From contig CM097883.1 in the NCBI GenBank assembly GCA_044892505.1, positions 238,886,001 through 238,950,000 of the forward strand: 64,000 bases of DNA, read 5' to 3'. The stretch is from Schmidtea nova. Taxonomy: Eukaryota. Both the position numbers and the translations under genes were made by a program. The notes under the pieces are model-generated. The model saw only the letters and a program-made list of their open reading frames with translations. It was not told where the DNA came from and made no database searches. Of the stretch, positions 25,819 through 62,672 are shown piece by piece (position 1 is the stretch's first letter; every line of letters starts with the position of its first letter).

Positions 25819-28643
25819 TAGTAGACAAAATTGCGGAACAAGAAACAAGAGCAGGTACAATACCAATCCTAACAGAAGCAGAAAGAAAAGCAGCAAAAAA
25901 GGCAAGAGCCAGGAATAATGCAGCGCAACTAAAGAATAAACTAGTAGAGATCAGTGATAACTCGAGTAACAAAGAGAACCAAGAAGAAACCCCAGAGAAT
26001 CCAGAAGTACAAAACGAAGTGGAAACGAGAGACGGTGAATTAGTCAGAGAAAATAATACAAACAGCGAAACAGAGGATAACGAACCAGAGAGTAACGAAG
26101 AAGAGGAATCTAACCCAGAAACAAGTGGTGAACTAGAAGCAAAGAGAACTAGTACAGCATTCCAAGACAGTGGAATCGGGATGAGTGATCACAGAGCGGA
26201 TCTGAGAGAAAAATTAAAGGGCGAATCGTTTAATGGAGATGCCAGCAGACTAGATACGTTTCTAAAAGAATTAGGCATATTCGTGGATATATGTGGATGG
26301 AGTGCGGAAACGTTGGTGAATCGAATCCCGCTATACTTGAAAGATTGTGCGTTGGATCTGTATATTGAAAAGAGATCGGGAAGTAGTCCACCCAGAACGT
26401 GGGAAGCGATCAAGGAGTTCTTCCAACAGACGTTCGGGATAAACAAAGTATTGAATGAAGCATTCGATGAATTCTCCACGAGAAAACAGAAGAGAAATGA
26501 TTCAAATGCGGTATACGTAAGTGAATTAAGAAAGTTGGCTAAACTGGCATTCAACAGAGGAAGTCCAGTAGACGAAGAATTGATGACAGCATTTTTCGTA
26601 CGAGGTCTCAGGAGACCTAACATCAGAGCACAAGTAGGATGCAAAGGATGTAAAGCGGTGGATGAAGCGTTGGAAGCAGCCAACCTTTTCGAATTGCATA
26701 TGGCAATGAACGATATGAGGATTACGGCAGTAATGGGAAAAACGACGGAAGATGAAAAACAAGGAAAAAGAAACATGAATCAAAGTATTCCCCATTCGCA
26801 GAGATTGTTCAAGGAACCGCCAGCGAGGAAAAATAACGGATATATCATGGTAAACACGAATAGAGGAAACAGTTACAACGACAGGCAGAATAGGCAATGT
26901 CAGACGTGTGGGAAAAGCGGACATTGGCAACAAGATTGTTTTCAGAATGTAGCCTGTTTATTGTGTGGACAAAAAGGTCATTCAGAGAATCGATGTTACG
27001 GGAAAACGTGTTACACATGTGGAAAAACCGGACACATGTCAAGAGAGTGTAATCAGCAGAGAAGCTGGTCAAACAGTGGAAATAGACAGAATTAAGGAAA
27101 TCGACCAAGCTATGGGAATCAGAGTCAACAACGGAACAACCAAAATAGCAATGCAAACGAAGCCAGTATGAAAGAAGCCAAGTTGAGACAGGAGGTATCC
27201 AGATTACACGAGATAATCGAAAGCATGGCAAAGGGAAGCCAGCAAGCTGCTCAACCGAAGATAAACATGATCCAATTAATAGAAGCCGAGGCCGAAAGAG
27301 AAAATAAAGAGAGTCAACAGAAACATAATCAAGAATGGGCCAGAATACGACGAGAAGAAGAACAAGTCAGACAGCAATGGCTACAACAGTTGAAAATGGG
27401 AAATCCAAGGATCAACATGATACGAGCAATAATGAAGAAGAAGCAGCAAGATAATTCGGAAGAAGCTGAAGTTGAAAGAAAAAGAAACGAGGAACAGAAA
27501 CAAGAAGAAGTGAATCGGGAAGTAGAAACCGCAGAGCAGAATCAAAAAGATGAAGAAACAGAAAAAGAGACAGAAACAGAAAAAGAAACAGAAAAAGAAG
27601 CGAATCAAGAAACAGAAGTGAGAATCAAACAAAGAGGAATGTTGGTGATCATGCCAAATGATCACGTGTTTCGATTCAAATATGATGTAAAAGAAGAAGT
27701 GGGAAGACTGTTCAATAAGGTAAATGAGATGATTCCGAGAGTGACAAAACTGCCTAGAGAAGCATTCCTACAAACAGAAGATCTACCGGAAGTGAAGCTG
27801 AAGATGACTGATATATGGGAAGATATGGGAGTAACAGAGACGAAAATAAACGTGATGATCATCAGAGAGGTGGAACCGGAGAAAATCCCACCACCAGTGA
27901 AACATGAAACTCGAATCAGTCGGATATTCAAAGGGAAAATAAGACGAAGACGGTTGGAAGAAATATATGAGTTGGAGAAAAGAATGGGAAAAGTTGAGAT
28001 AAAAAGAAACGAGAGTGAACCAACACAGGAAATTATCAAAAACGAAGCGAGACCAACCGCACATATTGGGATGCTGAGACACACAAGACAAGATTTGTCA
28101 GATGGAGAAGACGACAGCGAAGTTAGCAGTCTGGCAGGAGACATGCTAAAGGAACCGGAAAACGAAGATAAAAAGATGGAAGTAGTTGAGACGATGGAAA
28201 CAATGTCAGTAAAGGAAGACGAAATTCAGAAGTTGATGAATAATGCGTTGGAAGTGATCCATAACGAGGAGTTTACCGACAAGAAACGATACCGAAAGTT
28301 TATACGAGCAGTAAAGCAGATGAAGCATAAAGAATGGTTACAGGAAAGAGAGGTGAGAGTAATACAAGAATACGTGGAGAAGTTATTAAAAGAACCACTC
28401 AACGAATACGTAATACAAATATGGTTAAACGAGTGTACACCGAGAATCTGGATAAAGAACCCAATGACGGATGAAATTTACCGATGGGTTGAAGACAGAT
28501 TGGGAAGCTCATACAAAGACAAGTTCATATATTCGGAAAACGGATCGGTGGAAAAAGGAACGCATATGATAGCCACAGGCATATGGCCAGGAGAAATAAC
28601 AACGTTATTATACAACGTTATTAACAACGGAATTATACTTTAA
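25819..28643 (+). pseudogene. Giant Gag-containing ORF (capsid-like region, 3 CCHC knuckles, long charged coiled-coil) with one in-frame TAA at 27093-27095
   Basis: Listed ORFs 26019-27095 and 27168-28643 share one frame that is open from ~25819. Knuckles CQTCGKSGHWQQDC, CLLCGQKGHSENRC, CYTCGKTGHMSREC. The last ~10 codons come from the adjacent LTR. Confidence 0.85.
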
Positions 28644-31600
28644 CATAATGTGCACTTAAAACCTGATACTACATAAAAACGTAAATGTCAATTCATCCAT
28701 CGATGTCTTTTCCATTATATAATTTATCTGTATAAGAATATTTTACTCGTCGTTCGCCTTCATTCTCACAACAATTGTCATCTTATCCGAAAACACAAGT
28801 AAAATAGAAGCTAATATTGAAAAGAGAATCGTTTAAAATAATGCTCAAAGCTGATAAAATGATCACGAAATGAAACGAATTATGAAGACAAGTATTGATT
28901 GATCTGAATTAAACCTCATTAATTATCTAAATAATTTTTCTCCAGTGAACCTTGTTTTCTGGAGCCTGAAGTTCCCAAGTGGAGTGTCTCGAAAAATTCG
29001 CGCGCACTTTGGTTGGGAAATTCATGCTCGAACGAAACCGAAATTCACCTTACTTGATGTCGAAAACCATTCTTTGAAAAAATTTACAATTTATTTTGCT
29101 TTTATTTTATTTAGTATATAAAATTTTTTTTTAGATTAAATTCTTATTTGGATTACGAAATTTTTGGATAAAGATTTATTATTATGTAGATTTCGTAGTT
29201 GATCATAAAAATAAAATTTACTTTTTATTATATTGCGAAAAATTTATAATGAAAAAATTGTAAACCAAAAATTTTCCTAGGAGTTTGTAAATCAAAAATT
29301 ATATTGGAACACATGAAAATTATAAATCGAAAGTATTGTTATTATATCAAAAATTTTATCATTTTATAAAATTCCAAATTCGAAATTTCATAGAAAAATT
29401 TACAATTAGTATGTATATCCTTAAACTATAAAAATTAGAACCCAAAAATTTATATTACAAAAATTTGAAATTTTATTGTTAAATAATATTTATAAAATTA
29501 TTTTAAAATCTAGTAAAAAGAATTGTGAAATTACTATTATTATTTTAATTCTAAAAATATTTTATATATAAATATATATTGTTTTATAAAATACCCCCCC
29601 CACGATATCACCAGTCATATTACATCCATATTTGCAAAACAATACATCCATTTCATTCAATAACACCATCCATACTAATACCACATGCGACATATACTTA
29701 AATACAACACAAACACATACACTACCACATTTCAATCAATAGGATCTTCTATGCTAAATAATACAATAGACAATACATCCACTCACCAACATACACAACG
29801 TGATTTCATCTCACAGTATTCACTAGCATCATACATCCATACGATCCCCACAAATATTCATACAATCACATCCATTGTTTATCGCCTATTATAGTAGTAT
29901 CATTCCCAACATACAAACACACGCAATCACATAAATTCATAACAATAGGGCATTCATTTCAAACGTACTATAGAATATACATACACACACCTCTTAACTT
30001 ATTTCAATTTACCTCACCGAACTACAACACGCCCCATATCCATACAAATTCGATTATAATTCACTTCGACAAAATTGGTTTTGATATGTACCCATTAGTA
30101 ACCCAGCTAACCCAACAAAGACCCCTGGGATAATAATTGACCCCTAAAATAAACTCCGAAACCAGAATTACCTCTCCAAAATCGACCATAAACGTTACCT
30201 AGTATCCGAAGCATAGTTCAAACTACTCAGTAATCATAATATACAACAATCAGTAGGAAACCAAAAATTATTAGTCAAAGGAGCACATATGAGTATAACA
30301 TATTTTGTTGTAATAAATTTTATCGAGATTCGGCAAATTGAACTTTAATTAGTCCCAAAAAAACCCCCGGAAAATCTGCAAATCAAGAACTCACATTGTA
30401 AGTCAACGTCATATGAAATCTAAGTCCCATTCATTTGTTAACCTGCTAACGATTTGTATCCATACCTAATAGCCAGCTTTATTAATTTAAAAAAGTTTTT
30501 TTTGTGTCGTACCACTTAAAAAACGATCCAACCGATTCACAATAAAATCATAGAGTATTACTAATAATGATAAAAATAAAATCAAATACATTAAAGAAAA
30601 TTTTATTTATAAATTTATACAATAGAAAAAATTACAGTAAATCGTATTAAATTCATCAAAAGTGAAACCATAGAAAATTGGTAAAAGAAATCACGTAACT
30701 AACCGTGCCAGAGAATCTAACAAGGAAGGGCAGATTAAAATCCAAAGCGAAAAAATTTATATAACCAAAAAATTTCCAAACGAAACCCAGTAAATGTGGA
30801 GAAATCTCAGAGTAAATTGATGCTAAAAATCAGAATTTCAATAATAAACCAAAGAGAAATAATATGGAAGTTACTTTAGTTCGGAAATCATTGAAGTTGA
30901 TTTTTGATTATCTGCTGATAGGCGAGAGCAGCTATTTGCATTGACGCTTGCTGCAGTTCTGTGGAGAAGTGATCATCCACCTCAGGAGATTTGAGTCGCT
31001 AAAAGGAGAAAACTGTAATTATAAACATAAAAATTTGAATGTGACTTACCAGCTTGAAAATCAAAATTGAGGGAAATCTTCTTCCTAAAAATAACTAAAA
31101 TCGATAGTTATAATATAGAATTTAAATTTTCATAATAGAAATTACCCAATAGGAATTAAGAAATCTTGCTTCCCCACTTATATAGTTTTCTTCTTTTACG
31201 GGGGAACGGCGTCGTTTTCAGGGGTATCTTGATTCGAGTTGAATTTCCTAAAATAAAATAAAATTTAGAATTAGAAAATATAGGAAATATTCGGAATTAA
31301 AAGATATTAATAAAATCAAATTTACTTAATATTTAGGAAGTTTATATTGATACCGTTGCCAATGCCTCGGTGAGAATTCAAATGTTAAAATCATCAAATT
31401 TTAATAAAAAATATAATTAAACTTATAAAGCAAGATAGACATTAGGTATAGGGGATTAAAATTCTTATTGAGACTTTAATAAAAGGAAAAAAACTGTAAT
31501 AGAAAAATCTTAATCAATCATTATAAAACATAATTACGATTAAATAATTATTCCCGCAAAATATATGTTTTCGGTTGAAATCTAGCTTCCCGAATTGAGT

Positions 31601-32839
31601 TGGCGATGGTATACTTGAGTATAAGCTTGTAATTAATGATGAATGCGCAAATATTCCTGTGTTTTGAGATAATATTGTGTATAATAGTTGGTTGTGAAAA
31701 ATCAATAAATGTTCATCGATAAAATTATTGTATCTTACTAATTTAAAATGAATATTTAAAATTAAATTATAATGTTAGATGAAGACTTAAATGTTTTTTT
31801 GAATGTGTGATTTTAGATGTCAGAAATGAACCTGGACCAAAAATTTGAAGAGATGCACCGGTTGATTTTGGAAAATGCCCGACACAATCGCCGGGTGGAT
31901 CAGTGCTTCGCCGAGCTAAAAAGGCGAAAACATCAAATTCCGACGCGTTGCAAATTATGACCTCCCGGATGGAGAAATTTCGAGCGTGGTGCAGGGATAT
32001 GGAGTCGACCTGGTCGGACAAGGAGACCGTCGACAAACTGAAGAAGCAGAACCAGATGCTTCTACAACAGGCTGCGGAAGACGCAATGAGATTGCGCGCA
32101 TGCCGTGTCACGATGCGAGAGCAGGAGCTCTTGATCGAGAAATTGAGGGTGGATAGAGGCATTATCACCGCCATCTTGCCGAAATCATCGTTGCCACCCC
32201 AAGAATTGTTTCCAGTGAGGGTCGAAGAAGAGATCCTGACGCCTCCGGTTCCGGTGAAATTGACGTGGCAGAAACCCAATAAAGGAGTGAGGGCTCGACG
32301 AAGACGTCGTCAGGAAGCGAAATTGCTGGGGCAAATACGCAGAGTCCTCAGAAGTGATTGACATTACGTTATTGTGATTTGAATCGAACAAATAATATTT
32401 CATCTTGTAAATAATGTTATATTTATTACCATACTTTGTAGTTTATGTTATTGTTTTATTGACATTAAAGTTTTTCTTTTGTGTTTGAAATATTTAATTG
32501 TTTGAATGCGTGAAGGGAATAAATTGAATAAGATCAACTGAGGTTCAGTAGTAAATTTTAATTCGATATAACTTATGATTTTTTTTAATTAAATAATGCA
32601 TAGGAGGGACAAAATGGGCATTAAACCTTCTATCGGTAGCCCTTGGACCCAGGAGATATTCGGTCAATCATAGGTTCGTATTGACGACGCTCACTGATTG
32701 CGAATACCCACCCATTTGTTGCATTACCAACGTTACATTGTGACGGGCAACAAGATGGTTATTTCAATGTTTTGTATGTTGAGTTGTTCATACGAGCCAT
32801 AGCAACGTCAAGGTCATATTGACGATCAGCAACCCACCA
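28630..32839 (+). repeat. Giant LTR family 2, 5'-truncated copy (~4.2 kb)
   Basis: Reverse-complement homologue of 39727-~43870; ends AACCCACCA. Confidence 0.88.
31817..32361 (+). pseudogene. LTR-encoded coiled-coil/Arg-rich protein, family 2 (frameshift near 31925)
   Basis: TTTTAG|ATG MSEMNLDQKFEEMHRLILENARHNRRV..., then ORF 31903-32361 ending KGVRARRRRRQEAKLLGQ. The copy at ~40272-40815 keeps one frame with two stops. Confidence 0.78.
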
Positions 32840-32862: not shown

Positions 32863-34789
32863 TTATTTAGCTTTATTTAAAAAATAATACTTTAAGAAAA
32901 TTAGTGCATTTAATGATTCAAAGTTTAAGCGGCTTCTTATTTTGGTCAAGAAATTTCCTGCTGTTGAGAAAACCTTTTCTGTAGCGGTAGATGTTGGTTT
33001 TATAGTTAATAAGGCCTCGTATAATCGTTCAAGATTCTCAGTACGCTTTTTGGTTCCATCTAATATTTTAAAATCTGATTTCAAGTCTCTTATATTTTTT
33101 TCCAGTATTAGAACTATTATTCATTAAAATTTCTTCCAAAACTACCTCATTTTCTTCTTTATAAATATCGAAACAACCAATATCATTCGGTGCTTTCTTG
33201 ATACATTCTTTCAATTTTAAGAAACATTCAATCATTGGGATAAGAGAATTCCAGCAGGTTTTACAATCCAACATCAAACTCAAATTTTTGCCTTCATGGT
33301 CTGTGACATAATTTTGCAAAATTGAGTTCCTTACTGGTGAATTTTTAAATTCTTTAATAACGGTTCTGGTTTCTGCTAATGTTTTACCAATATCTGGTCT
33401 AAAAGTTGTAATTATTTCTTCAACATCATCAAAATTTATGTTTGCATTTGTATCCAAATTACTGGGATTTTCTTCACTGTTTTCATCACTGTCATAATTA
33501 TCTTCACCTTCACTTAAAATTATGTTTTCGTTTACAATTTTTTTCTAAAAAACATCAATCACTGCTAGGTGAATAGAATGATTGAAACAAAGTTGGCATA
33601 TAGCTTCTATTAACCTTCCATATTTTTGCATGACTGTAGCTCCATCGTTTGTGGAAGCGATAATGTCTTACGCAAATTTCAGATAAAAGCAAAGTAATTT
33701 TTCATCAACCAAATTTTTCAAGTTAACTGTTTTGCACAAACCATCAATTGGTATCAAACCTAATACATGCTCTTTATTTTTACTGTGTAAGGTTACGTTC
33801 AAATATCATTTAACATTTCTGCCTGTCCATTCGTCTACGGTAATAATAAATTTTTGTCCATTAGTTTTTGAATTCGAGGTCGATAAGTATTTGGCCAGTT
33901 CTGTTCTTTTCTGTACAGCAAAATCTTTAATGTGATTCATGATGGATGTATTACTTTTTGGCATTTCATAACCACGATATTGAACAAATCCCTTTAGAGC
34001 TGAAGAATTTTTAATATCATGTATGGAAAATCCATCCACAGCAGCACATTTTGCTAAAATTTCCCTCAGCGAGTCTCGATTCACGTAATTGCATAAATTA
34101 CCTTGTTCAGTTTTAGTTTTTTTGGCGCACACGGAACCAGTGGATATCATCGGAAGTTCTTCTGAACCATTTCGCTTTTTATTAATAAATATATCGTGTC
34201 TTTTAAAGTGGTTGATCAATGCGGTTGTGGATGACCCTTTACAGAAGATAACATTCCCACACTTCAAACATTTTGCGTCTTCATTATTTTTATTTTTACT
34301 AAAAAAATTCCAGACTTTAGACTTTTTATTTGAGTTCTTGGTTGACATGGCTATTTTAGAAAATTAAATTGTAACTACACTACAAGTAACCTCACAAAAT
34401 ATAATAAACTTACCATCAATTTGTCGAATAAACCTATATCTTCAAAATTAAATATGAAAAAGAAAAACCAATACTATTTTATTTAAATTTATCATAAGTG
34501 TAAATTAATTTTAAACAAATATTTTCGATATACAATTCATTTATTTAGCTCTTGCAATTGTTTACAAAATTAAATATGAAAAAGAACTATTTTATTTGCA
34601 AAGCTTACTATTTTATTTAAATTTATCATAAGGATAAATTAATTTTAAGCAAATAATTTTAAACAAATATCCTGCAATTGCTTAAATAATAACCGAGTAT
34701 TAATGGTAAAAACCGAGTTACCGAGTAACTTATCAAACAGAGAAATAACCGAGTGACCGAGTACTCGATAACCGATTATGGAAACCCTA
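32863..34789 (-). mobile_element. Degenerate hAT transposon, one end lost
   Basis: BED finger (KSKVWNFF...CLKCG...HFKRH), TVDEWT, LDCKTCWNS, PTSTATEKVFSTAG; terminal GGAAACCCTA with ACCGAGT subterminal repeats. Confidence 0.9.
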
Positions 34790-37043: not shown

Positions 37044-37215
37044 TGTTGGTACCATAGCTGGATGTTATTTTATGGCGACCAAATAATTATTGATGTAACC
37101 GATTAGTTACCCGTTGCAGGCAGCGTTGGTGCTGTAACTATTGGGTGCAAATACTCGCAAAAGGTGAGAGCTGCTACTAGAACTGTAATTGCTCGAGTAC
37201 TTTTGTTGGGGCTAT
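37044..37215 (-). repeat. 3' end of a third related LTR family
   Basis: Reverse complement reads TTGCGAGTAT...CACCAACG...TTATTTGGTCGCCATA...GCTATGGTACCAACA, matching ~46586-46802. Confidence 0.65.
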
Positions 37216-38599: not shown

Positions 38600-41500
38600 T
38601 ATAGTTTCCAGATTTCTAAAGAAAATTCATTCTGGAGACAGATGCTAGTTTTGACAATATTGGTGCTGTATTATCACAGAAAGATGACATTGGGTGTGAA
38701 AAGAAAATAGCATACGGTTCTCATGCAATGTATAATCATGAAAAGAGATATTACATAACAAAAAAGAGTTGCTGGCAATTTATTATTTTTGTCAACACTT
38801 CAATTATCTGGAAAACGGTTCACTTTGAGAACGAATCATAAAGCTATCACGTTTATGTTATCTACAAAGAAACCAATAACAACGCAATTTCAGACAGGGA
38901 TTAACTACCTCAGTAGTCTGGATATTAAAATAGAGTATAAATTATTACGGATCATGCAAATGCAGACGTCTTGTCAAGGAGCATATGTGAAACATGCACA
39001 CAATGTTTATTGGCACACGAAGACGCAAAATTGTAAAGAATGAAAACTCGAAGAATAAACACGATGGAAAAAACTGAAAATTATAAGTGGCAAAAAATTA
39101 ATACAGAAATAAAACAAATAAAAAGGAAATAGCACATGGTACTAGTTGGAAATTTATACTGGTAGACAATGTGGTGAAGACTATAGAGGGTAAGGTATGG
39201 ATACCTAGAGACAAAAGACAAGAAATGATAAAATGTATACATATTTTGCTATCACACGCAGAAGCAAAAAAGTGATTAAATATGTAGCATACAATTACGA
39301 TATGAGAGACATAAAAGAATCAGTAAAAGAAACAATTGCTCATTGCGAAGCATGTCAAAGAACGAAAGTTTTGACAACGAAGATTAGGGAAGAGACAATA
39401 AAACTGACAGTAGAAGAACCGTGGGAAAAAGTGTACATTGATATATATGGCCCATTGTAGAAAACATTCAGAAAGAAAAGATATATAATCTCAATTATTG
39501 ATCAATTTAGCAGATATATTCTCTGACGGCTGTCGCTAAACAGGACGAGGAAACGGTGAAGGAAACAATACTACAAAAATGGATTCTTAAATTTGGAGCA
39601 CCAACAGAATTTTACACAGATTATGGAAAAGTATTTGAATCCAAGATGATGAAAGATTTTACAAAATCAATGGGAATACACTTTGCTTTTCAAGTCCATA
39701 CCAGCATAATACAAATGGTTTGATAGTGGTGGGTTGTTGATCGTCAATATGATCTTGACGTTACTATGGCTCGCATCAACAACTCATCATACAAAACATT
39801 AGATTAATCATCTTGTTGCCCGTCACAATGTAACGTTGGTAATGCAACAAATGGGTGGGTATTCGCAATCAGTGAGCGTCGAAAATTCGAAACTATGATT
39901 GACCAAATTTCTCCTGGGTCCAAGGGCTACCGATAGAAGGTCTACTGCTCATTTTTGTCCCTTCCTCTATAATTCAGCTACCAATTTTTATAGGTAATTA
40001 GCGAAATAAAAGTTTCATCGGCTAGTATTTATTAATCTATCTCAATTGGTCTTTTCCTACCAATCGCTATCCGTTTTCACAAAGTATTCTCATCACACAT
40101 TCCACAGTCAAACAATAATTCAAGTTAATACACAATTCAAAAATTTAATATAATTAAAAGGAAATACATACAATACATATCACAATAAAACATTAAAGAC
40201 AAAAAATCACTTGTCAACAACAGAATTAGTCAAATTTGTTAAATTAAATAATAGTCAGGTCAAATTAATGTTTAGTCAAGAAACTCGGTGGATTCTTTTT
40301 GGAATTGGCCCAATAGGCAAACTTCCTGGCGACGTCTTCTTCGCGCCCTAACCCCTTTACTGGATTTCTGACGTTTAGACCTTTCCGGAACCACAGGCGT
40401 TTGAATTTCCTCCTCGACTCTGGCAGGAAATAGTTCTTGAGCCGGTTGGGGTATCTTCGGCAGTACGGCTACAATGATGCCACTGTCTGCTTTCAACTTA
40501 TCAATCAGCAAGTCCTGTTCCCGCATGGATACTCGACACGCGCGCAACCTTAACTAGTCTTCGGCAGTCTGATGCAGAAGCAATTGATTCTGCTTCTTCA
40601 AATTATCGACGGTCTCCTTGTCGGACCATGTCCATTCCATTTCCCGACAGCGAGCTCTGAATTTCTTCATTCGGGAGGTCGTTATTTGTAGGGCGTCTGA
40701 ATTTGATGTTCCCCTTTATTCCAGTTCGGCAAAGCAAGGGTCTATTTTTCGGTTATACTTCGCGTTTTCAAGGGATAATCGAAACAGTTCGTCGATCTTT
40801 TGCTCAATGTTCATTTCTAGAAATGGGTATATGATATTTAAAACACATTTAAGTCACTATTTAGCATCAAGGCATGTCAACAAAAAACGTTATTTCTACA
40901 TGCAATTAATTATCTATCTTGGGAAAACATAGTTTTTCCCTCATCACTCCTCAATTCGGAAAAAATATCACTAAAAGGACCTGGGAAACAATCTATTCAC
41001 TCGCTATCTTTCCCTATTCGGCCTTCAAAATTTTGATTTTAAATTTCCTATATCTTTGTATGTAGAAGTTTAGTCGAAAACTCGCTCTGAATACCAGTCC
41101 TAATGTCTATCTTGCTATTTATTCTTAGAATCTTATTAAAATCTGAACTTTTATAATTTAAATTTTCATCGAGGCCTTAGTAACGGCAACGGTGTAGATT
41201 TTTCTAATGTTATATTAATTTAACCTTATAAATTTAGCTATGATTATGAATTTTTATACTAATTTCAGATTTCAGACGAAATTGTAAATTAGAAAATTTA
41301 ATCTCAAACGTTCTTAGGCCAATTTCTTCGACTACAAGCTCCGTAAAGGAAAACTATATAAACGTAAGTACAAGATTTACTAATTTTAATTGGTTAATTT
41401 ATTTTATACAAATTTAATTTATATTAAGAAAATTATTGATTTTTCTTTTCAGTTATTTTGGTAGAGGAACCCCTAAGAAAACGTTGGTAATTATTACATT

Positions 41501-44500
41501 AACGAGTGGGATTGGTAATTTTGTTTTAACAATTTTCTTAAAATCTAATTGTTATTTGTAGATTATTCCACTTTATCAACTCTCAGATATACGAAAATTC
41601 CCAATGGTTGAAATTGTTCAGGTAATTTTCTGTAAGCTTAGTTGCAATTTACATTACGTGACAGGTATGAACTTAGAGATTTAAATCGTTCGTCTTGGAT
41701 TTCCTCAGGTGAACTAAAAGAAAATATGGATTTATTCCTCGAGCGATCTCAATTCTATCTAGTGGGAATATTTTTGACGCTCTAAAATTAAATGGAATTT
41801 TCTCATTCTTGGAAATTTCTCTTCCAACTTTCAAGCAGGGTTCGTGTATCGTCTCACGAATAATCAACTTTGCTGTTAATCTTAGCATGGAAAGTTTTAT
41901 AACAATTTCTATACAATTGACACTTTTGAATTATCAACTTTCGAGTTGTTTCTTCCTTTTAAAGTTTATCAATGGAAATTTTAGGTACTTTAAATTTTCA
42001 ATGAGATCATCGACTCATCATTAAAAATATTTTTATTGATGTGAATTTAACTCTGAACAGAACATACTTCATGCTGAACTTATGAATGCGCGAATGATTT
42101 ATTCAAGTATATACTCTAACAATTCACCAATTTTTCGATTTCCCTTTTTCGAGCCGCTGACGACGAGATTTGTTGATTACACCCATCGGAACAAAATTGA
42201 TTGTTTATATGATAAAAATATATATTAATTCGTGGTTCTTTATTTTTTATTTTTACTGAAATTTTGGATAAAATAAATATCGATTTTGGTTTTTTGTGGT
42301 TGTTGGTTCTGATTTTTACCGGTAGCTTTTGATCGATTTTATAATATAAAAAATAAATAATAAAACGAATATGATGTTTTGTGGTAGTTGAATGAATGAA
42401 ATTTTGGCATTGTCTTGTTGGAGGCGTGCATGTTTATGTATGATGTGGGAGGCTATAATTTCGAGTTTTTATGTTGTTATACTTTTATGGGTTTATTATG
42501 AATTTTCACGGTGATAGTTGCAGGATATTGTATGTGATTAGGTGTTATTGTATGTGTCTGTATGTTGAATTTAATGCAGAATAAAAACGAGTAGTTTAAT
42601 GGTGGGTGAGATTGGATGAGTGCTTGTGAGATCATCTGGATGTATGATGCAGACACATGCTATCAAATGAATTTTTGGGTGTGAATTTTAGGGATGTTTG
42701 ATGCTGATGGACGTTAAAGAGTGAGACGATGTTGTGTGTGTATTATAGATAAATAAGTTTTGTATGTGTTATTAGATATGGATGATGTTATTGAACGGCA
42801 TGGATGTTATTGATTTGCAAATATAGGTGTTTTATATCTTTTGTAATATCGTTGGGGTTAGTTTAAAAACTAATAAATTACATAAAGATAAATAAATTTT
42901 ACAATAAAGTAATAATTCTAGTATCCATCAATCTTCTTAGTTAAATTTTTAAAATTTGAATTTTATAAAGTAACAATAAAATTTTCGATTTATACTTTTT
43001 ACATTTTAATATAATAAAAATATTTTTAATTTTACAAGCTAATAAAAGGACTCGATTTATAAATTTTTACTTTTTTAGGAGAAAAAAAAGATTGTATTTT
43101 AAATTTTCCCAGGATATAATTCCTATAAAAGTAAATTTTGGTTTTATAATTAAAATTTGCAATTTCCATGAAGTTTACACAATAAATAAAATTTTCAATT
43201 CAAAAATTTTCCTAAATAAATTCAAATAAATAAATAACGTAAAATTTATCCACCGTTATACAAAGGTTTTTATAATAGAATTCTTGATTGGTAATTTTTC
43301 AAAGGGATTTGAATCTGCTGATCTAAAGTAATTTTCACAAAGATATTGAGATTTCAGCTTTTGTATCTTCGTTCGGTAATCATTCAAAATCAACTCTCTA
43401 ATTCATAATAGTTTTCGACATCAAGTGAGGTGAATTTTAGTTTCGTTCGAGCGTGAATTTCCCGAACAAAGTGCGCGCGAATTTTTCGAGACACTTCACT
43501 CGAGAACTTCAGGCTTACGAAACTAAAGTTCGCTGGAGTAAGTTATTCAGATAACTATGTATTTAATGAGGTTTAATTCAAATAAATCAATACTTGCTCT
43601 CATATTTTGTTTCGTGGTAAATATTTTTATCTGTTTTGAGCATTAGTTTGAACGATTCCCTTTAATAATATTGACTTTTATTCGACTTGTAGATTCTGAT
43701 AAGATGACAATTGTTGTGAGAGTGAAGGCGAGTAACGAGTTGGATATTTTGTGTTGACAAATTCCGTGGTTGGAAAGACATTAATGGATGTATTAACGTT
43801 AGTGTTTTTTGCTGAAGTATCGGTTTTTAATTGCACAATATGTTATAAAATATAGTTCGGATAAAATACATTAATATAAATTGCTGATCATTAATATTAA
43901 AACCTTGCCCTTGGCCAAGCCACTGTTCCCCAGTTGGGATGAAGTGATCATGGATGTTTGGGCGTATCACCTGGAGTCGGAAAAATGGACTGATCGATTA
44001 CGAATCGAACCAACGATCCGCTCAGGCTACTTCCATTCGTTCGGCACGAGGCCTGAACGGATATCAGAGGGTATGGGAGCAAAAAAAATTATTTTTATTT
44101 GTCATAAAACAGTAACTATTGCATGTAGGCTAAGAAAATTTTATGTTTGAAATGGGAATTTGTGACAACTAAAAGGAATATTAGCATAAAATAAAAGTAA
44201 ATGCATATAATTAAATGAATATTTTCATTTAAAATTTTATTAACGAGTTATGGATAAATAATAAATAAATAGAAATAAAACAAATAAATATAAAAGTGAC
44301 CAAGTTGCTGGGCATGGGATGATCAACGGGCATGACGGTTGATGATACCATACCAAAATAAAGAAAAATTCTCACATTAGTATTCACGATGTAGGATCTT
44401 TTAGCAGTGTCCTTCTTCGACTTGGCGATTTAAATCAAAGAACCAAATGATATCTTCTTTAATGAAATTCTTCTGCGAACTATTGAATTCAGGAGGCTTG

Positions 44501-45690
44501 AGTTCAGTCATGGTTCTTTTGAGAATCGATAGAACTAATGTAATTTCTTCTCGAGTGGTTAATTATGGCGACCGGTTAAAAATTATTTTTCTTTTCTCTC
44601 TTTCTGTAATAATTCTTCTGCGACCAAAAAGAAATAAAATTTTCTCACAAATTCTGCCTTCTGCTATTTTGATGGAAGTATATATACCTCGTTCTATGTG
44701 TTACCTTCGTTGATGTATTAAAACAAATTGTTCTAGAAGGAGTTTCTAATTTTCTCGAAATTAATTCCAACAATTTTCCGCAAAATTAAGTTAATATTTT
44801 TACATCAAATTTTCATAAAACTTTAAATAATTTATTTTTAATCCAAAATTTTACTTTTGAATTAAAGTTTATTCTAATTTGATTTAATTTGTTGCATTTT
44901 CGATCAAAATTACTTTCTTTTATATTTTTATGCATTTTCAATATGAAATCGTGATCTTCCTTCTAAAAACATGCTAAATTTCCACAACTGAGGTTTTATG
45001 ACGTGAATGCGTTCACCAGGAGCATATTCAATGTGTTTTCGGCCTATTCTAGCTATTTAAACGTTCTTATTTTAACCAATTTTTGTTCTACTTGATGTTT
45101 TGGTTTATGGGCCTGTAGATTAGAACTTCGCGCGTTCTCTACTTGTTAGTGCGCTTTGCCCGCTTTAATATTTAGGTGTGTTTTCACTTAACTACTTCGA
45201 TTTTACTTGATGTTTTGGTTAAATTAGAATCTTGCGCGCTCTCTACTTATTGTTTTACCGCTTTATTTAAACAATTTGCAGTTTTGGCCCAACAATAGAA
45301 TGTCAATTCAGGACAATAAGGGACTATATAAATACGTCATTAAAAGGGAAAAGTAGAACAGATTGGGCAGAGAGCATACCAGAGATTGAATTTACACGAA
45401 TGCAACGTTTCAGAAATCTTCAAATAACATTTTCCGGAATTAAAATATTTAAAATTTAAAATATCATAAAAAACGGAAGCAAACACAGCACAGTCTTTTT
45501 GTCTTCAGGAAGCGATTATCACAGGGTTGAGGATATGTCTTACGTCAATAAACGTTCCGAGTTGGTTCACGACAAAATGTTTAAGGAGAAATTTTCTAAA
45601 CATGAATGCATGAAAACCTTTGCGTTTTTGGGACTAATTAATTTTGTTTTCTCTGACAATCAAGGTTTTAATAACCACGATTGATGGTAC
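38600..45690 (+). pseudogene. Degenerate Ty3/Gypsy RNase H-integrase (38600-39726 plus 45299-~45690), split by a solo LTR
   Basis: FILETDASFDNIGAVLSQ, TNHKAITFM, EPWEKVYIDIYGPL, FGAPTEFYTDYGKVFES. The motif HNTNGLI|ECQFRTIRDY is restored across the insertion. Confidence 0.88.
39727..45294 (-). mobile_element. Complete 5568-bp solo LTR (giant family 2)
   Basis: Termini TGGTGGG...CCCAACA on + strand, 4-bp TSD ATAG (39723-39726 and 45295-45298), no gag/pol inside; LTR-ORF remnant at ~40272-40815. Confidence 0.9.
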
Positions 45691-45789: not shown

Positions 45790-46236
45790 TAGGACACTTT
45801 TAGGACAAATGATATTAATAATTTTGTTTTGTTTGTTGTTGTGTTATGTGTATTTAAAAATGATTATTGAATGAAATTAAGGTTTGTAAAAGTTTTGATG
45901 CTTAGAATGATCAGTTTTGATGTATTAATAAAATCCTATTGATGTGATTATTTATTTTAAATTGCCGATCAAAAACCTTAATGTATATTTGTGTATTAAA
46001 TGTTGAGTATTGGACTAAGAAATGGGCATTGAACCTTCTATCGGTCGCTCTTGAACGCAATGTGATGTTTGGTCGATCATAGTTTAGATTTTTCGACACT
46101 CACTGTTTGCGGACATCCGTCCATTTGCTGCATTACCAACGAGAAACAAGATGGTTTTAACTTATGTTTTATGTGTTGAGTCGTTGATATGAGCCATAGA
46201 AACGTCAAGGTCATATTGGTGGTCAACAATCCACCA
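45790..46236 (+). repeat. 3' fragment of a family-2 LTR
   Basis: AACCTTCTATCGG core at ~46042; ends CAATCCACCA. Confidence 0.85.
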
Positions 46237-46585: not shown

Positions 46586-46802
46586 GTGAAAAAAAGGGAC
46601 CATACGGCGAAATGAGCGCATATCTTCTATCGATAGCTCTTGAACCCACAGAGATTACTCCAGCACTTATTGTTCTGAAAACAGCGCCTACTTCTTGCGA
46701 GTATTTTCGGCCATTAGATACATTACCAACGTTGCTTACAACAGTTAAATAAGTATTTCTTATTTGGTCGCCATAGAATTTGATCCTGCTATAGTACGAA
46801 CA
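46586..46802 (+). repeat. 3' end of a family-3 LTR
   Basis: AGGGAC...CTTCTATCGATAGCTCTTGAACCC...TTGCGAGTAT...CATTACCAACGTT...GTACGAACA. Confidence 0.65.
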
Positions 46803-47862: not shown

Positions 47863-49365
47863 TGGTGGGTTGTTGATCGTCAATATAACCTTGACGTTAC
47901 CAAGGCTCGTATCAACAACTCAACATACAAAACATTGAAATAACCATCTTGTTGCCCGTCACAATGTAACGTTGGTAATGCAACAAATGGGTGGGTATTC
48001 GCAATCAGTGAGCGTCGTCAATACGAAACTATGATTGACCGAATATCTCCTAGGTCCAAGGGCTACCGATAGAAGGTTTATTGTCTATTCTGTCCCTTCT
48101 TGCATGATTTATCTATAAGTATTCAACAAAATTTTATCGGCAATTCAACATAAACATTCTACATAACTATAAATTTATTATTGCATCCAAATAAATTATT
48201 CCGAGCAGCAAAAACACATACTTAACCTTAAATTTTTCGAATATCGAAACTAATGATAATAAAAAAAAAATAAAAATTCTTTACAATAAATTTTCAATTT
48301 ATATTTGAAATTTTAAGACCTCAATTTTCATTCTATGCACGAAAATTTTATTTATAAATTAAACCAAAAAAAAATTCCCTTGTTTAAAATCACCAATATT
48401 CATCTTCAAGGAAAAACAAAATTCCAAAAAATCATCAAGAGTAAGTTAAATAATATGAATTATGCAATTAAAAAACAATTTAACGTTTAGATAAACAACA
48501 GGCTGGCATCGTCGGGGGATGTGGAAACAGAAGCGGACTCTCTCCCCGAAAATAATTCAAAAGAAACTAGAATTTCATCCCATACAAAGCACAAATGCCA
48601 ATTCTATCGCAAAGTTAGTATTTATAATTATTTAAAAATTATCATTAATCTGCTTTATTTTAAATTTAGAAGTTTTGAAGAAAATTAGTCGAGATTTGGA
48701 ATAGCAAGGGTTATAAGAAAATCCTCGCTACCACAGCCACAACGAAATTCTAGACGCTTTGATGAAGACCGTCAATTATGATTCAGAAAACTTTTAAATT
48801 AGATTAATTTATCTTCTTTTTAATGATATAAATAAAAATATTTTTCTTTTTATTGTGATATTTTCAACTTCCTTTTATGATAGTAAAATTGTAAGAGCTT
48901 TTATTTAATGGTGCGTAGAATGGTAAAACTGACTGGAGAAATGCATGCTTGTATTGTTAATTCGAAACATCCCGGTATGCTTGAAAATGGATCCGGTATG
49001 GCTCTTAGGAATATTGATTGACGGGGAATTTTCCGTAGGAAGTTGATGAGGGAAAACTACTAGTTTAAATTTGAATATATATGGATGATAATTTTGGTAA
49101 ATCATTTGACTATAGTATGCTGTATTTTGTAATGACATTTCGGTATAGGAGGTAGATTGTTGATTTTCAAGTTTGTGTGTATGTATACTATTATAGATTT
49201 AGGATATATTTTCTATTGTCATGATTATTTGCGATTGTATGTTGGGTGAAATAAGGGATTCAGTGAATGGGTGTGAATGCTTGTACAGTTTCTGGATGTA
49301 TGATGCTAACTAATATAACTGTGTAGATTTTCTGTATGAATTGTCTGGATGTAAGTAGGTAGATG
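47863..49365 (-). repeat. Internally deleted family-2-like LTR fragment
   Basis: Starts TGGTGGGTTGTTGATCG with the full U5 module; ~49150-49350 resembles ~42500-42700. Confidence 0.8.
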
Positions 49366-51529: not shown

Positions 51530-52588
51530 ATGGCATCAAACCAACAAAATCTAACAAACAATCCCCAAACACACGACTACGAAACCATACCCAATCAACA
51601 AGAGAATACCAGCTACTTTTACACCCCTGAAAACCACCACACCATAAATTCGATAATAAACCCCAAGGCAAACATTCCAAACTACTTTACAGATGAGAAC
51701 GGCACACCCCAAAAATGGCTAGAGTTCTCAAAACTAACATTGACACTGTCAGGAATCAAATCGACAAAAAGCTTATGCTCCAACATAATAGCAGCTCTTC
51801 CTAGCAATATTCTAAATGAAATTGCAGATCGAATCGACGAAATAGCGAATAGCGACGACCCATTTAACCTACTATACACAACCTTAGTAAATAGAAATAA
51901 GGTGAACAGGAGGGAGGTTTTGGAGTCTTGTCTTAAAGATATACAGCTTGGAAATGACAAACCAAGCGAATTTCTGCGAAATCTGAAAAGCAAACTGGAA
52001 TTTTTGCAACCCAAAATCACAAGTGCGGGTCAAAATGATTTCGTGAAAGACCTATTCATGAGGGCAATGCCGCAAGAAATAAGACGCATCTTAGTGGCAA
52101 ACGACTGCACAGACCTCGACAAAATAGCCGATATCGCGGACAAAATTAATGACGAAATATTCCCAACTGTGTGTAGAACATACCGAAAACAACACCCGTG
52201 GGAAAACAAACAAGAAAACCGTCAAGAACGAGTTAACCCAAACAATGATACAAATCTACTGCTGAACTCGTTAATAAAAAAAGTTGACGAGGTCCTAACA
52301 GAAAACAAGAACCTCAGAAATGACTTACAAGAGGCACAAGCGAGAGAAACCAAAAGAAACCAAATCAATCAAAACAACCGGTCAGAACAAAACCCTAACT
52401 TTAACCGTTACCAAAATAACCATAACAACCCAACAGAGCAAAAACCAAATTTTAACCGATATAATAACCCAAACAACAGCTACATACAAAATGAAAATTG
52501 GTGTTATTTTCACAATAGATTTGGAGACAAGGCGTACAAGTGCAACGCACCCTGCACTTTCAACAATAAAAAGCCGGAAAACATATAA
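51530..52588 (+). CDS. gag: Gag of element A (352 aa)
   Basis: QLGNDKPSEFLRNL, LFMRAMPQEIRRIL...IADIADKI, WCYFHNRFGDKAYKCNAPC. Confidence 0.93.
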   Translation: MASNQQNLTNNPQTHDYETIPNQQENTSYFYTPENHHTINSIINPKANIPNYFTDENGTPQKWLEFSKLTLTLSGIKSTKSLCSNIIAALPSNILNEIADRIDEIANSDDPFNLLYTTLVNRNKVNRREVLESCLKDIQLGNDKPSEFLRNLKSKLEFLQPKITSAGQNDFVKDLFMRAMPQEIRRILVANDCTDLDKIADIADKINDEIFPTVCRTYRKQHPWENKQENRQERVNPNNDTNLLLNSLIKKVDEVLTENKNLRNDLQEAQARETKRNQINQNNRSEQNPNFNRYQNNHNNPTEQKPNFNRYNNPNNSYIQNENWCYFHNRFGDKAYKCNAPCTFNNKKPENI

Positions 52589-54445
52589 AGTCACCAATGA
52601 TCGCACCGACCATTGGTGACAGCCAAACATTCACGGTGCACAGCAACGGTATTAACTTTCTCGTTGATACCGGTTCAATAATTTCCTTATTGCCGAACTA
52701 CCTCTACAAAAACACAAAAACAGAAACCACAAGTTTATGTGCAGCAAACGGCAGCCCTATCAACACATTCGGAAAACAAAACATCGACATTTCCGTCAAT
52801 AATATAAAATACAAGTGGCATTTCACCATCGCAGAAGTGAAACAAGCCATATTAGGAGCAGATTTCCTCGCAAGATACAACTTACTAGTCGATTGTAAAA
52901 ATGGGAAAATTATATCAAACAATTCAAATAACTCAACCACCAAAAGTAACCAATCAACAAAACAAACCAACTGCGACATTGGAGTGATAACAGCTCTACA
53001 CGGTGAAATAAAAACGAATGAGCAGAAACTAAAATCAGAAAACAAGGACGAACATATTCCTAATGAAATCATGAAACTGATACAAACAATGCCAAACATA
53101 ACAAATAAACTACAAACAATTAGCGAAACTAAATGCATAACTGAACACGCAATAATAAGCAATGGAAATCCTGTGCATGCAAAAGTCAGACAGTTGGACA
53201 AAAATAAACTCGAAATAACAAAGAAAATATTTGACGAATTATTAGAAAACCAAATCGTCAAACATTCTAATTCAAATTGGTCCTCAGCTCTCATGCTTAA
53301 AGAAAAAGCAAATGGTGAATGGCGTGCCTGTGGAGACTACAGAGCACTAAACAGCATCACGACACCTGACAAATATCCAATTCCTATCATAAATGATATA
53401 ATTAACCGATTCAACAAACCCAAACTCTTCAGCAAAATCGACTTGGAAAAAGCCTACCATCAAATACCCGTCAAAGCGGAAGACATAAAGAAAACAGCGA
53501 TCATCACACCCTTAGGCCTCTATGAATACAACAGAATGCCTTTTGGTTTAAAAAACGCTGCGGCAACGTTTCAGCGTTTTATGGACCAAATCCTGCGAAA
53601 CCAACGAAATACAGTCGCTTACCTAGACGACATACTTATTGCGTCCACAACCAAATCGGAACACATCGAAAACATAAGAAATGTGTTGGAAATACTCAAC
53701 AAACACGAACTAAAAATTAATACAAAAAAATGCCAATTTTTAAAAACTGAAATACAATTCTTGGGTCACTTGTTGAATGAATCGGGAACAAGACCACTAG
53801 AGGACAAGATAAAAGCAATAAAAAACTACCCATTACCCAAAACAACAAAAGAACTAAGACGATTCCTGGGGATGATCAACTTTTATCACAAATACATACC
53901 AAAATGTAGCGAAATGTTAGCCCCTCTCAACGAATTAAACAAAATAAAGAGAAATATTAAAATAAATTGGAACGAAAATCTAATAACAGCCTTTGAACAA
54001 GCAAAGGAAAATCTGAAAAATGCAAGCATCCTAAGCTACCCTAATCAGGAATTACCATACATAGTCAACACAGACTGTTCAGGACTAGCAATGGGAGGTA
54101 CCATATTCCAAGAGGAAAACAATGAAAAACGACCCATAGCATTCTTTTCAAAAAAATTGAAAACGCATCAAATGAGATACTCTACCTTCGACAGGGAGTT
54201 ATTAGCGTTACACGACACGATCAAGCACTTTCAATACCTATTGGAAGGTAAAGAATTCGAGGTTTATACTGATCATAAACCCCTAATAAATGCAATGAAT
54301 ATGAGAAATCCTTCACCGAGACAAATACGACAATTGAATTATATTTCACAATTCAATTGTAAAATTAAATACATAGCAGGATCAGCTAATATAAGTGCAG
54401 ACGCATTATCAAGAATCGAGACTGATATCAACGCACTAAACATAC
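52570..54445 (+). CDS. pol: Pol of element A, protease-RT-RNase H part (-1 frame to gag)
   Basis: FLVDTGS, RMPFGLKNAAATFQ, YLDDILIAS, TDCSG...DRELLA...TDHKPL. Confidence 0.95.
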
Positions 54446-54746
54446 TGTAATGTTCTTTGGACACCATAAATAGATGTTCATGCGTGTTTTATGTACCTCC
54501 GAAATTGTGTGAATCGGAGTTGTAAAAAGGTTGTTAGTCATGTGAAAATTTTATTATTTGTAAATTTTATTGTACATTGTTTAGGATTATGTGAAAGAAT
54601 TATTAAATGTGTAAAAATTTTATTATTTGTATATTTTATTGCCCATTGTTTAAAAGAGATTGTTAAGCGGTTAACCCGCGCACAAATTAATACAAAATAA
54701 ATATTTTAAACAAATTTATCAAAACTTATTACTAATCGATTTTATT

Positions 54747-57476
54747 ATGATAAAATTAATTTATATTTTGGAATTCATCCACAGTATCTTTACAAACAAC
54801 TTGTTGCCAGCAGATATTAGACTGACAGACATCGCCAGGAATATTGAATCTGTTAATGCTACGGCAACTTATAATGTTGAATTTGTCAATATGAAGTGGA
54901 AAATAAACGTCTTTTATTACAAATTCTTTCTAGATGTCAGACCATTGAAAGTTTCAACTAACGGTAAATGTTTGGAAGTGCCTATCAATTCCTATGGATA
55001 CATCACTACGGAGTCCAAGGAATCAATGTCGGGATATTTCCGCATCAATGATAAACATGGAATCAGCAGATTAGTTGAATCGCATGATAAGCGCTATCCG
55101 CCGATTTACATCGCTAACGTGCCAGTGATTATTCTGCCTGAAATCCCAGAAATAGTCGCCTTAGAAATGAAGGGATTTATGGAACCATCTAAAACTTTAA
55201 AACTAAATATTTTTAATAAACAATGCTATGCCAAAGTTGTTATTGTGCTCTACTTTTATGTCAATCTTAGTGATAACATTGAATTTGTTACCGAGAGAGA
55301 GAAATTTATAAAGATCGAAATATGTGTACAGAATATATTTCTCCGTTTAAAATTGATATTTAATCAACTCCCGTGGGAAATAAGGATCGAGTTCTTGGTG
55401 GATAACTTGCCTATTTTGACTCCAAAAATGTGCTTGAGTGACTTTAAAGGCCCCCGTTATCCGGTTTCAGTGAATAGTTATGGCAGATTGAGTTTAAGTG
55501 CCCAGGAATTGCTCGAACCTTTTAAAAGTGATTCATCTAGTAGATGTTTTAAGTCGGAAGGCCAAATGCCGTTCACCGGTATGGCTTTAATGTTGAATGC
55601 TACTCTCTATAGTTCTTTGACAATGATCGTCCAACATTATTACATCGACATTATTTTCGGATTGTTTGTATTCATTGTCTGTACAATATGCATTTTTGAA
55701 GGTTCTTATATGATGAACTTATTAATCTTAAGAAAATTACGATTTTATTGTCAGTTGATGTCCTATCAAGATCCGAAAGTGAATGTAGTTAGCGTATGTA
55801 CTGTACTATCAAATCCATGTGTGTATCGTTTTTACGTGGTTATTCAATCTTATGAGATCCTCCTTGGGAGATTACCCGATGGTTTCGATAGAGCTTTGAT
55901 TCGACCCGGCATCCTACTTTCCCTGTTATCCGACAAAACTAAAGTACCTTCATATTTTTTTGTAAATTTATGTAAATTAATCAGCCAGGGAACAAAGATA
56001 AAATTGATGAATCGGCAACCACACCAAAAATCTGAATACCTTGGTGTGGTTTCCGGTTCATCAAATTGGTGTCAGAAGTTACTCCCTCCCTCCAGTAACA
56101 TTTATATTATCCTAAATAACACTTTATTTTATTCTATTCCCACATTTATTATTTTTCCTATTCCTTCCCAAATGAAGGCGCTACAACCCTGGGCGGGACT
56201 AACTGAATTGACGGTACATGGAAACCACATCATAAGAACAACCGGGTTTTTAAACATTAAGAGGAAACAAGTATCACACAAGTTCCTCTTCCGGTGTCCT
56301 AACAAGACTTCCGGATGGCAACCTCTGTGTCCGACGAAGTCACATTTGTCCTCAATGTCTTCATTGCTCCTAGCAATTGGCGTCCCAAAGGAAACACACC
56401 GCCACTTCTTTGTCAAGAAGTCCCAATCGGCGACACATACCCCAGTCATCACCACCTATTTCGACATTATTCCCCGTTTGACTGGAGGAATGCAAACTGA
56501 TGAGGCTAACACAGACTGTGAAATCAGTCACATACAACCGCCAACACAACAAACAACACCAGTTATTACCCCAATACCGTTTTTCCTAGACGGCGTTGGC
56601 TCCCCACAAACGTGGTTCCTGGCACTAGAAGTGACTCCAACCTTTCTACCCACTCAATCTCAAGGGCAGAAGTTTGGTGCACTCTTGTCCATGCTTCCAA
56701 GCACTATTTACACCACATTGTCCACCGCCATTGCAACCGCAGCCACAGCAAGTGAGCCCTACAACTCACTGAAATCGGCAGTGCTAGACGCCTACCGACC
56801 AAAATTAGATCATTTATATGAGGCTTGGTTCCGAAATCAACCTCTCAATAATGAAAGACCAAGCGCCTTTCTCAAGCGAGCCAAGGAACAACTCGAGAGG
56901 ATCCAGGCTGGTCTTACCAAAGACGACGCTCTACTCCGTAGGTTCTTTCTAAAAGCACTACCTACATCAGCACAGTCCATTCTGGCCGTTGTTCCAAACA
57001 CAACATTGGAAGAACTGGCCAAAATTGCCGACAAGATCGTGGAAATCAACACGTCACCTGTTACTCCATCACCGGTAGTCGCAACAACAAGCCTCCCACA
57101 CGCCGAATTAGGAGCACTAGTCAGCGCCATAGCTGCTTTAACAGCGAGGATGGACAATTTAGACGCAAGTCTACACACCCGAGGTCGAAGTCGAACAGAC
57201 AGTCGTGACAACAATCAAAAACGACATCGGTCCACATCTGCACGAGGGCTCATATGCTCCTACCATAAGACGTATGGAGACAAAGCCCAACATTGCTATG
57301 TCGGTTGTAGGTGGAACAACCGACTTCCAACATGCCTGCCTCGCAACCTTTGCATCTATCACGCAATATTTAAGACCGAGGCCAAAACATGCTTGGAAGG
57401 CTGCCGTTTCCATACTGGTAATCACAATACCAGTAAAGTTAATCAAAATTCGTATAATAAGCCTTCGGAAAACTGA
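54747..57476 (+). CDS. 909-aa ORF: LTR-encoded putative membrane glycoprotein (aa 1-439), leader-derived linker and Gag (from Met ~56490)
   Basis: No stop across LTR, PBS and leader. Hydrophobic N-terminus, sequons NAT37/NLS173/NAT284, TM-like IDIIFGLFVFIVCTICIF (~300-318). Gag motifs ERPSAFLKR, FLKALPTSAQSIL...LAKIADKI, CSYHKTYGDKAQHC. Confidence 0.8.
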   Translation: MIKLIYILEFIHSIFTNNLLPADIRLTDIARNIESVNATATYNVEFVNMKWKINVFYYKFFLDVRPLKVSTNGKCLEVPINSYGYITTESKESMSGYFRINDKHGISRLVESHDKRYPPIYIANVPVIILPEIPEIVALEMKGFMEPSKTLKLNIFNKQCYAKVVIVLYFYVNLSDNIEFVTEREKFIKIEICVQNIFLRLKLIFNQLPWEIRIEFLVDNLPILTPKMCLSDFKGPRYPVSVNSYGRLSLSAQELLEPFKSDSSSRCFKSEGQMPFTGMALMLNATLYSSLTMIVQHYYIDIIFGLFVFIVCTICIFEGSYMMNLLILRKLRFYCQLMSYQDPKVNVVSVCTVLSNPCVYRFYVVIQSYEILLGRLPDGFDRALIRPGILLSLLSDKTKVPSYFFVNLCKLISQGTKIKLMNRQPHQKSEYLGVVSGSSNWCQKLLPPSSNIYIILNNTLFYSIPTFIIFPIPSQMKALQPWAGLTELTVHGNHIIRTTGFLNIKRKQVSHKFLFRCPNKTSGWQPLCPTKSHLSSMSSLLLAIGVPKETHRHFFVKKSQSATHTPVITTYFDIIPRLTGGMQTDEANTDCEISHIQPPTQQTTPVITPIPFFLDGVGSPQTWFLALEVTPTFLPTQSQGQKFGALLSMLPSTIYTTLSTAIATAATASEPYNSLKSAVLDAYRPKLDHLYEAWFRNQPLNNERPSAFLKRAKEQLERIQAGLTKDDALLRRFFLKALPTSAQSILAVVPNTTLEELAKIADKIVEINTSPVTPSPVVATTSLPHAELGALVSAIAALTARMDNLDASLHTRGRSRTDSRDNNQKRHRSTSARGLICSYHKTYGDKAQHCYVGCRWNNRLPTCLPRNLCIYHAIFKTEAKTCLEGCRFHTGNHNTSKVNQNSYNKPSEN

Positions 57477-62665: not shown

Positions 62666-62672
62666 AACATAC

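Follow-up and report, generated by a model that had tools for sequence, protein, structure and literature searches.

At the right end of the multi-kilobase LTRs of Burro-like giant gypsy elements is a module of about 240 bases, present in eleven copies in the window, the 64,000-nucleotide stretch of Schmidtea nova DNA analysed here (Table 1). The copy at 32603–32839 (237 nt) is of the solo or 3′ type and lacks a primer-binding site (PBS) behind it. A profile built on 26 natural copies, two of them from the window, recovered all ten copies listed in the original prediction and added the one at 17677–17886, which it matched over 17794–17886. Run on 40 genome stretches of 10 kb each, taken at even spacing, the same profile gave 12 matches, against none in the reversed control, which corresponds to roughly 30 copies per Mb (12 matches per 400 kb) and makes Burro-like elements very abundant here. 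The module sequences form about 13 clusters; of 204 distinct profile matches, 175 were parsed for structure and 29 were dropped.

Table 1 Module copies and associated features in the window, with blastn identities to the copy at 32603–32839
Position	Strand	Feature	Remarks
525..771	+	Family-1 module copy	
1148..1327	+	Family-2 module copy, 5′-truncated	87.6% over 1152–1327
9281..9500	+	Family-5 module copy, decayed	
17677..17886	-	Further-family module copy	Ends AGCA; absent from the original list
22290..22527	+	Family-1 module, end of 5′ LTR	Ends AGCA
22528..22533	+	Spacer of 6 nt, from att CA to PBS	
22534..22551	+	18-nt PBS	Complementary to the tRNA-Pro 3′ end in this genome
25818..27095	+	gag (Retrotrans_gag, CCHC knuckles)	Downstream of PBS 22534..22551
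28630..32602	+	Upstream subfamily-specific part of same LTR as next row (putative U3)	Left part missing
32603..32839	+	Family-2 module	Right end (putative R/U5) of Burro-like LTR
32616..32644	+	P1: short stem, internal loop, 2–3 bp, near-invariant 7-nt loop	Loop 32628–32634
32645..32650	+	Conserved GRACCC motif	Pairing partner differs among families
32657..32706	+	P2: long hairpin, near-invariant 1x3 U/CAC internal loop	CAC 32692–32694
32712..32758	+	P3: outer stem, 4-nt bulge, invariant CC/GG, AAC bulge, inner hairpin	
32770..32839	+	Terminal stem: U-rich strand, the predicted partner of att CA and (5′ LTRs) of the spacer	
32806..32824	+	Family-2-only hairpin, supposed T arm	Inside terminal stem
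32833..32839	+	att end of LTR	Imperfect inverted repeat of left end
37044..37212	-	Family-3 module copy	Ends AACA
39727..39962	-	Family-2 module copy within solo LTR	91.5%
39727..45294	-	Family-2 solo LTR, 5.6 kb	4-bp target duplication CTAT
46020..46236	+	Family-2 module copy, older	75.7%; P3 inner hairpin deleted
46586..46802	+	Family-3 module copy	
47863..48097	-	Family-2 module copy	94.9%

The placement at an LTR 3′ end, made originally from the letters of one stretch, is borne out by the termini of the repeats, which start with TGTTGGG, end with CA and are flanked by 4-bp target duplications. These ends and duplications were found in all four paired LTRs (3.3–3.6 kb) and in six solo LTRs (3.8–6.0 kb) in 10 stretches. 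Among the 30 best genomic matches, likeness ends directly after CACCA, and no two have common downstream sequence there. Upstream of the module at 32603–32839, the 170-residue open frame at 31849–32361 has no Pfam match.

Burro-like elements are proposed proviruses, and BURRO1 rises when smedwi-2 is knocked down (PMC8532177). Those bearing the module encode CCHC Gag, a viral fusion protein, protease, RT, RNase H, integrase, ankyrin, MATH/TRAF, BIR and RING domains. At locus L294 the order is CCHC, fusion glycoprotein and protease, and the fusion domain is also found in L180 and L295; RT, RNase H and integrase followed by ankyrin repeats, together with MATH/TRAF and BIR cargo, occur among L293, L180 and L291 (RT), L172 and L179 (MATH), and L178, L283 and L285 (BIR). 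In the covered parts of three family-2 elements, each only partly covered, Gag, protease and cargo are present and no RT or integrase was found. The published account of Burro/GYPSM1, the giant gypsy-like LTR retrotransposons of planarians, describes the same set, with CCHC Gag, a mononegavirus-type fusion protein before the protease, RT, RNase H, integrase, ankyrin, MATH/TRAF, BIR, RING and multi-kilobase LTRs (PMC6431247); the elements are called Burro-like here by domain content compared with that description. Burro elements exceed 30 kb in total, whereas many copies here appear shorter, measuring 9.8–43.6 kb from junction to junction (most 13–24 kb) plus two LTRs, and the longest may contain nested insertions. 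One family-2 element also contains, on its opposite strand, a frame of 1,360 residues (L285:2640–6719) that weakly matches Endonuclease VII (E 1e-4) and is itself probably a nested insertion.

Conservation and fold of the module

The module is more conserved than the LTR sequence around it, as originally proposed: in the same 5′ LTR copies its identity is 0.957, against 0.707–0.767 in four upstream bins and 0.716 in the leader that follows the PBS (30 copies, selected by nothing but their final 10 nt and the PBS start; 120 of 435 pairs; reversed control 46–63%). Because module and flanks were measured on the same copies, copy age is controlled in this comparison; exchange between copies is not. 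Such exchange is suggested by mosaics, since each of the two family-2 module haplotypes is combined with several U3 types and a single U3 type bears both, which is what strand transfer at R would produce by attaching the same R/U5 to many different U3s. The high family-2 identity may reflect R/U5 exchange as much as selection. Just upstream of the module, a 13-nt stretch (32590–32602) is common to copies with different U3 types, and R may start within it. The core running from AGGGAC to TGGACCC is indeed kept while flanks diverge, but the AGGGAC start is absent in some families.

Three domains, referred to here as P1, P2 and P3, make up the core. P1 carries a C-G/T-A double change between families. 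The apical loop of P2 is GNRA in most families other than family 2, where it has 4–6 nt and is not GNRA; 92 of the 106 copies having a four-base P2 loop fit GNRA. The outer stem of P3 is the upstream second stem noticed at the outset. Lying between P1 and P2, the GRACCC motif resembles the tRNA-Pro 3′ end and, by eye, could pair at five of six positions with the PBS; it may occupy the primer-binding site before the primer binds.

The prediction of a covarying RNA structure holds for the core stems. With 18 named pairs in 26 aligned copies, 83.2% of cells are paired, compared with 66.8 ± 1.2 after shuffling (0/500) and 30–45% when slid. Among 14 lineage representatives, 86% of cells in 28 pairs are paired and 20 of the 28 show a double change, the helices having been drawn by eye from the same families used for counting and the P3 register picked by best pairing, which fell on GG in 14 of 14. 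Twelve of these 28 pairs pass both covariation filters, as against 21 of 756 non-cognate column pairs; none of 20,000 partner permutations reached 12 and none exceeded 6, by a statistic that ignores the tree. Folding energies agree in direction, with sense z of -1.6 to -4.2 in nine young copies, 0.0 to -2.3 for antisense and -0.2 to +2.2 for flanks, the sense strand folding better in 9/9. Taken alone, the copy at 32603–32839 folds unremarkably (z -1.52) and has two stem-weakening changes. The strand test within families, its counts coming mostly from old families, is flat, with 11 recurrent G-U, 9 A-C, 20 other breaks and 9 Watson-Crick changes.

The P3 loop has a loop-loop match of at least 6 bp with the terminal domain in 49/49, 7/7, 1/2 and 8/18 copies of four groups, copies that are not independent, against 4–18% in shuffled sequence. 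The match is seen repeatedly in families 1, 4 and 5; families 2 and 3 lack both of its strands. The Rfam search that had been suggested gave no match over the module. Pattern scans listed at least 2 loci in viruses and at least 80 in metagenomes; among those listed, likeness to the module profile was limited to the pattern (best E 0.0056), and we read these matches as chance. Contigs of four sequencing runs from other organisms gave coverage of AT repeats or none at all.

The best-supported structure is the P1–P3 core together with the att-spacer stem described below, both seen in part in the original prediction. We are much more confident that the fold is real than of any statement of its role.

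The LTR end, spacer and primer site

Between the att CA and the PBS is a spacer of unusual length. Family-2 LTR/PBS junctions number 2,130 (control 0), and of the 100 that were listed, 99 have a 10-nt spacer; in the other families seen it measures 6 nt. Exact 18-nt tRNA-Pro primer sites total 2,927, with matching tRNA-Pro genes found in the genome. Conserved in most families is a U-rich motif, the predicted partner of CA and spacer: at 65 of 66 5′ junctions the att C and A are predicted to pair with this strand (group means 0.90–1.00), and the predicted stem leaves 2–3 free bases before the PBS (group means over the same junctions).

No polypurine tract precedes the 3′ LTR, the longest purine run within 45 nt being 6–7 nt (L172, L178, L283). 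In its place is a perfect, conserved 7-bp hairpin (3,185 genomic matches), followed by a GC block that, by eye, could pair at 8–9 of 9 positions with the PBS start. The elements with 10-nt spacers, and no others, have a hairpin-to-LTR distance that is longer by 4 nt (61/61 and 18/18, or 79/79 paired rows out of 89 primer-site rows, 10 being unpaired). As this 4-nt covariation of both junctions marks one lineage, it counts as one evolutionary event.

Less likely than not, in our estimate, is a further reading in which Burro-type cDNA ends are formed unlike those of textbook retroelements. The R/U5 RNA would set a 6- or 10-bp extension, the hairpin with its GC block resembling a tRNA 3′ end would replace the polypurine tract and set a matching extension, and integrase or a helper nuclease would trim both; family 2 would have lengthened both by 4 nt, apparently borrowing enzymes. 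Among integrated end-to-end junctions searched for the extensions, 39 family-2 matches included none with both spacers, and the 6-nt type gave 0. One of 30 family-1 loci (L150) ends three bases early, at an upstream CA, through alternative processing or a small deletion.

Two further forms of primer contact were tried and rejected. Pairing of tRNA-Pro beyond the 18-nt PBS reached at most 7 nt in 6 loci, and for priming by pre-tRNA through complementarity of spacer and trailer, the trailer in the L121 array is mismatched (1/1,106 sites). The tRNA-Pro genes at L121–L140 lie in a long tandem array of 308-bp units (1,106 pattern matches), one unit of which, in L121, is called tRNA-Ile by ARAGORN.

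In family 2 the terminal domain had been read as an acceptor plus T-arm minihelix with an unpaired ACCA, from which RNase P/Z would excise a CCA-ended RNA of about 60 nt. The stems of this description exist, with an 11-position outer stem, a 6-bp hairpin stacking directly on the outer stem's 3′ strand, and the 7-nt loop GGTCATA in 55 of 61 copies. When the last 63 nt are folded alone, ACCA is partly open (P unpaired 0.22–0.93). The outer stem nevertheless runs over the terminal CA (T-A in 61/61 and G-C in 60/61 copies, and likewise with RNAalifold), and with spacer and PBS attached, as in a 5′ LTR, three of the four ACCA bases are predicted to be paired in 6/6 copies. In tRNA the T-loop motif is TTCRANY and the acceptor and T stems stack to 12 bp; the family-2 loop matches this motif in 0 of 61 copies, the stacked helix has 11 + 6 positions in place of 12 and continues over the LTR end, and the 6-bp hairpin shows no double change among 61 copies. 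Nor is such an end common to the families, as had been claimed: ACCA and this arm are confined to family 2, family 1 ending in AGCA, family 3 in AACA and the others in AGCA or AACA, and their terminal folds differ. At the att end, ACCA is the inverted repeat of the TGTTGGG with which the LTR begins, and the 4-bp duplications lie right beside it; the original caveat had named the att end as another explanation of CCA. ARAGORN called 0 tRNA genes over the window, and with the lack of an Rfam match the tRNA mimic failed every test run (T-loop, helix length, free ACCA, ARAGORN, Rfam); we regard excision of such an RNA as barely credible.

Possible roles of the module

On balance we favour the reading that the module is a folded R/U5 leader with its main role in getting reverse transcription started. 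Of the functions first suggested for an RNA element at this place, primer placement is thus the one we prefer, and a free-ACCA substrate of RNase P/Z is not retained. Transcription would start near the module's 5′ edge, from which it would follow that the module is R/U5. The terminal stem would keep att end and spacer fixed immediately 5′ of the tRNA-Pro primer site, beside the tRNA duplex, and would in this way organise primer placement and the start of reverse transcription. P1–P3 may be recognised by the element's Gag or RT, also on behalf of families seemingly without their own, and first-strand transfer at R would join the module to many U3 types. Linear cDNA would carry 6 or 10 extra bp beyond CA, to be trimmed before integration. 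P1–P3 themselves could serve reverse transcription, but also export, packaging or 3′-end control.

The fold might mainly control the fate of the RNA, acting in nuclear export, packaging or dimerisation, or in hiding and showing a poly(A) signal, like retroviral TAR, the poly(A) hairpin and response elements. Invariant unpaired bases (the 7-nt loop, U/CAC and AAC) resemble protein contacts, the loop-loop match in four groups lies above shuffled levels, and 2 of the 14 representatives have AATAAA within P2. The poly(A) hexamer, however, has no fixed place across the 14, and such control leaves unexplained a terminal stem that tracks the spacer up to the PBS. We consider it unlikely as the main role; it can coexist with one in reverse transcription. 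Quite improbable, in our estimate, is that conservation stems from homogenisation by strand transfer together with DNA-level promoter and att motifs, pairing being incidental or confined to single-stranded cDNA. The U3/module mosaics, the flat G-U versus A-C count within families and antisense z values down to -2.1 to -2.3 in family 2 would suit it, but between-family double changes in 20/28 pairs, the GNRA loops and stronger folding of the sense strand in 9/9 copies argue against it.

HDV-like ribozymes are nested double pseudoknots of P1, P1.1, P2 and P3 with a catalytic C in J4/2, and a self-cleaving core of this or a new kind could make the RNA 5′ end. The 3-bp stem of the module's P1 with its 7-nt UUC loop, and the GG and later CGAA of family 2, recall such cores. 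Across 14 representatives the descriptor fails: P1.1 GG is present in 1/14, there is no G-started P1 partner at a fixed place, and P2 forms 2–5 of 6 pairs. CGAA is paired inside the module's P2, and no Rfam ribozyme matches over the module, so that we hold cleavage by P1–P3 to be very improbable. The covarying fold with its invariant loops offers direct targets for probing the priming, packaging and trans-mobilisation of these elements.

Known systems and other features of the window

The retroviral U5-IR/U5 stem lies beside the PBS and includes the att end, and Tf1 reportedly has a similar structure. The predicted stem here resembles it in holding att directly 5′ of the PBS (65/66 5′ junctions) and differs in also taking in most of the 6- or 10-nt spacer and in standing behind a three-domain core that has no Rfam match. 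Retroviral integrase removes a dinucleotide (PMC8149907); the 6- and 10-nt spacers and the missing polypurine tract would imply cDNA end formation outside this two-nucleotide rule.

Ty1 RNA has a folded 5′ end with a 5′-terminal pseudoknot that is needed for reverse transcription and bound by Gag (PMC4974528). If the module is indeed at the RNA 5′ end, the two are alike as folded cis elements of LTR retrotransposons, with no sequence or topology shown to be shared. Additional contacts with the tRNA are made in Ty1 and Ty3, whereas none were found here in 6 loci. Helenus elements are shorter than 1 kb and hold a recognisable tRNA sequence with Pol III boxes in animal gypsy-type LTRs (PMC10886601). 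They are similar to the present elements in carrying a structured-RNA-like segment inside the LTR and in their 4-bp target duplications, and different in that the LTRs here span 3.3–6.0 kb with no tRNA detected by ARAGORN or Rfam.

A folded leader in an LTR element is thus of an already known kind, and the module fold is one without an Rfam family. Apparently new are the fold, the 10-nt and 6-nt LTR-to-PBS spacers and the left-junction hairpin in place of a polypurine tract, the long paired spacers and the missing tract being the part likely to surprise specialists. Section 7 of the Burro description is silent on the RNA structure of the LTRs, the primer site, any spacers and the priming of the plus strand (PMC6431247). 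Our literature search found nothing on Burro LTR structure, cis-acting RNA or long LTR-PBS spacers; the original Burro paper of Grohme (2018) and its supplements, the Repbase entry and the 1998 paper of Lin and Levin lay outside that search and may note the primer site or spacer. Spacers of this length and the missing polypurine tract would make standard LTR annotators miss or misplace primer sites.

The window also holds other mobile elements. Two nested small gypsy elements with a DUF7041 gag occupy 51530–63754 without a module copy, and within them a 1,623-bp repeat of 99.8% identity holds a long open frame. Pieces of hAT transposase and a transposase frame that we take to be Tc1-like are found among 4213–7431, 33068–34363 and 18530–19489.
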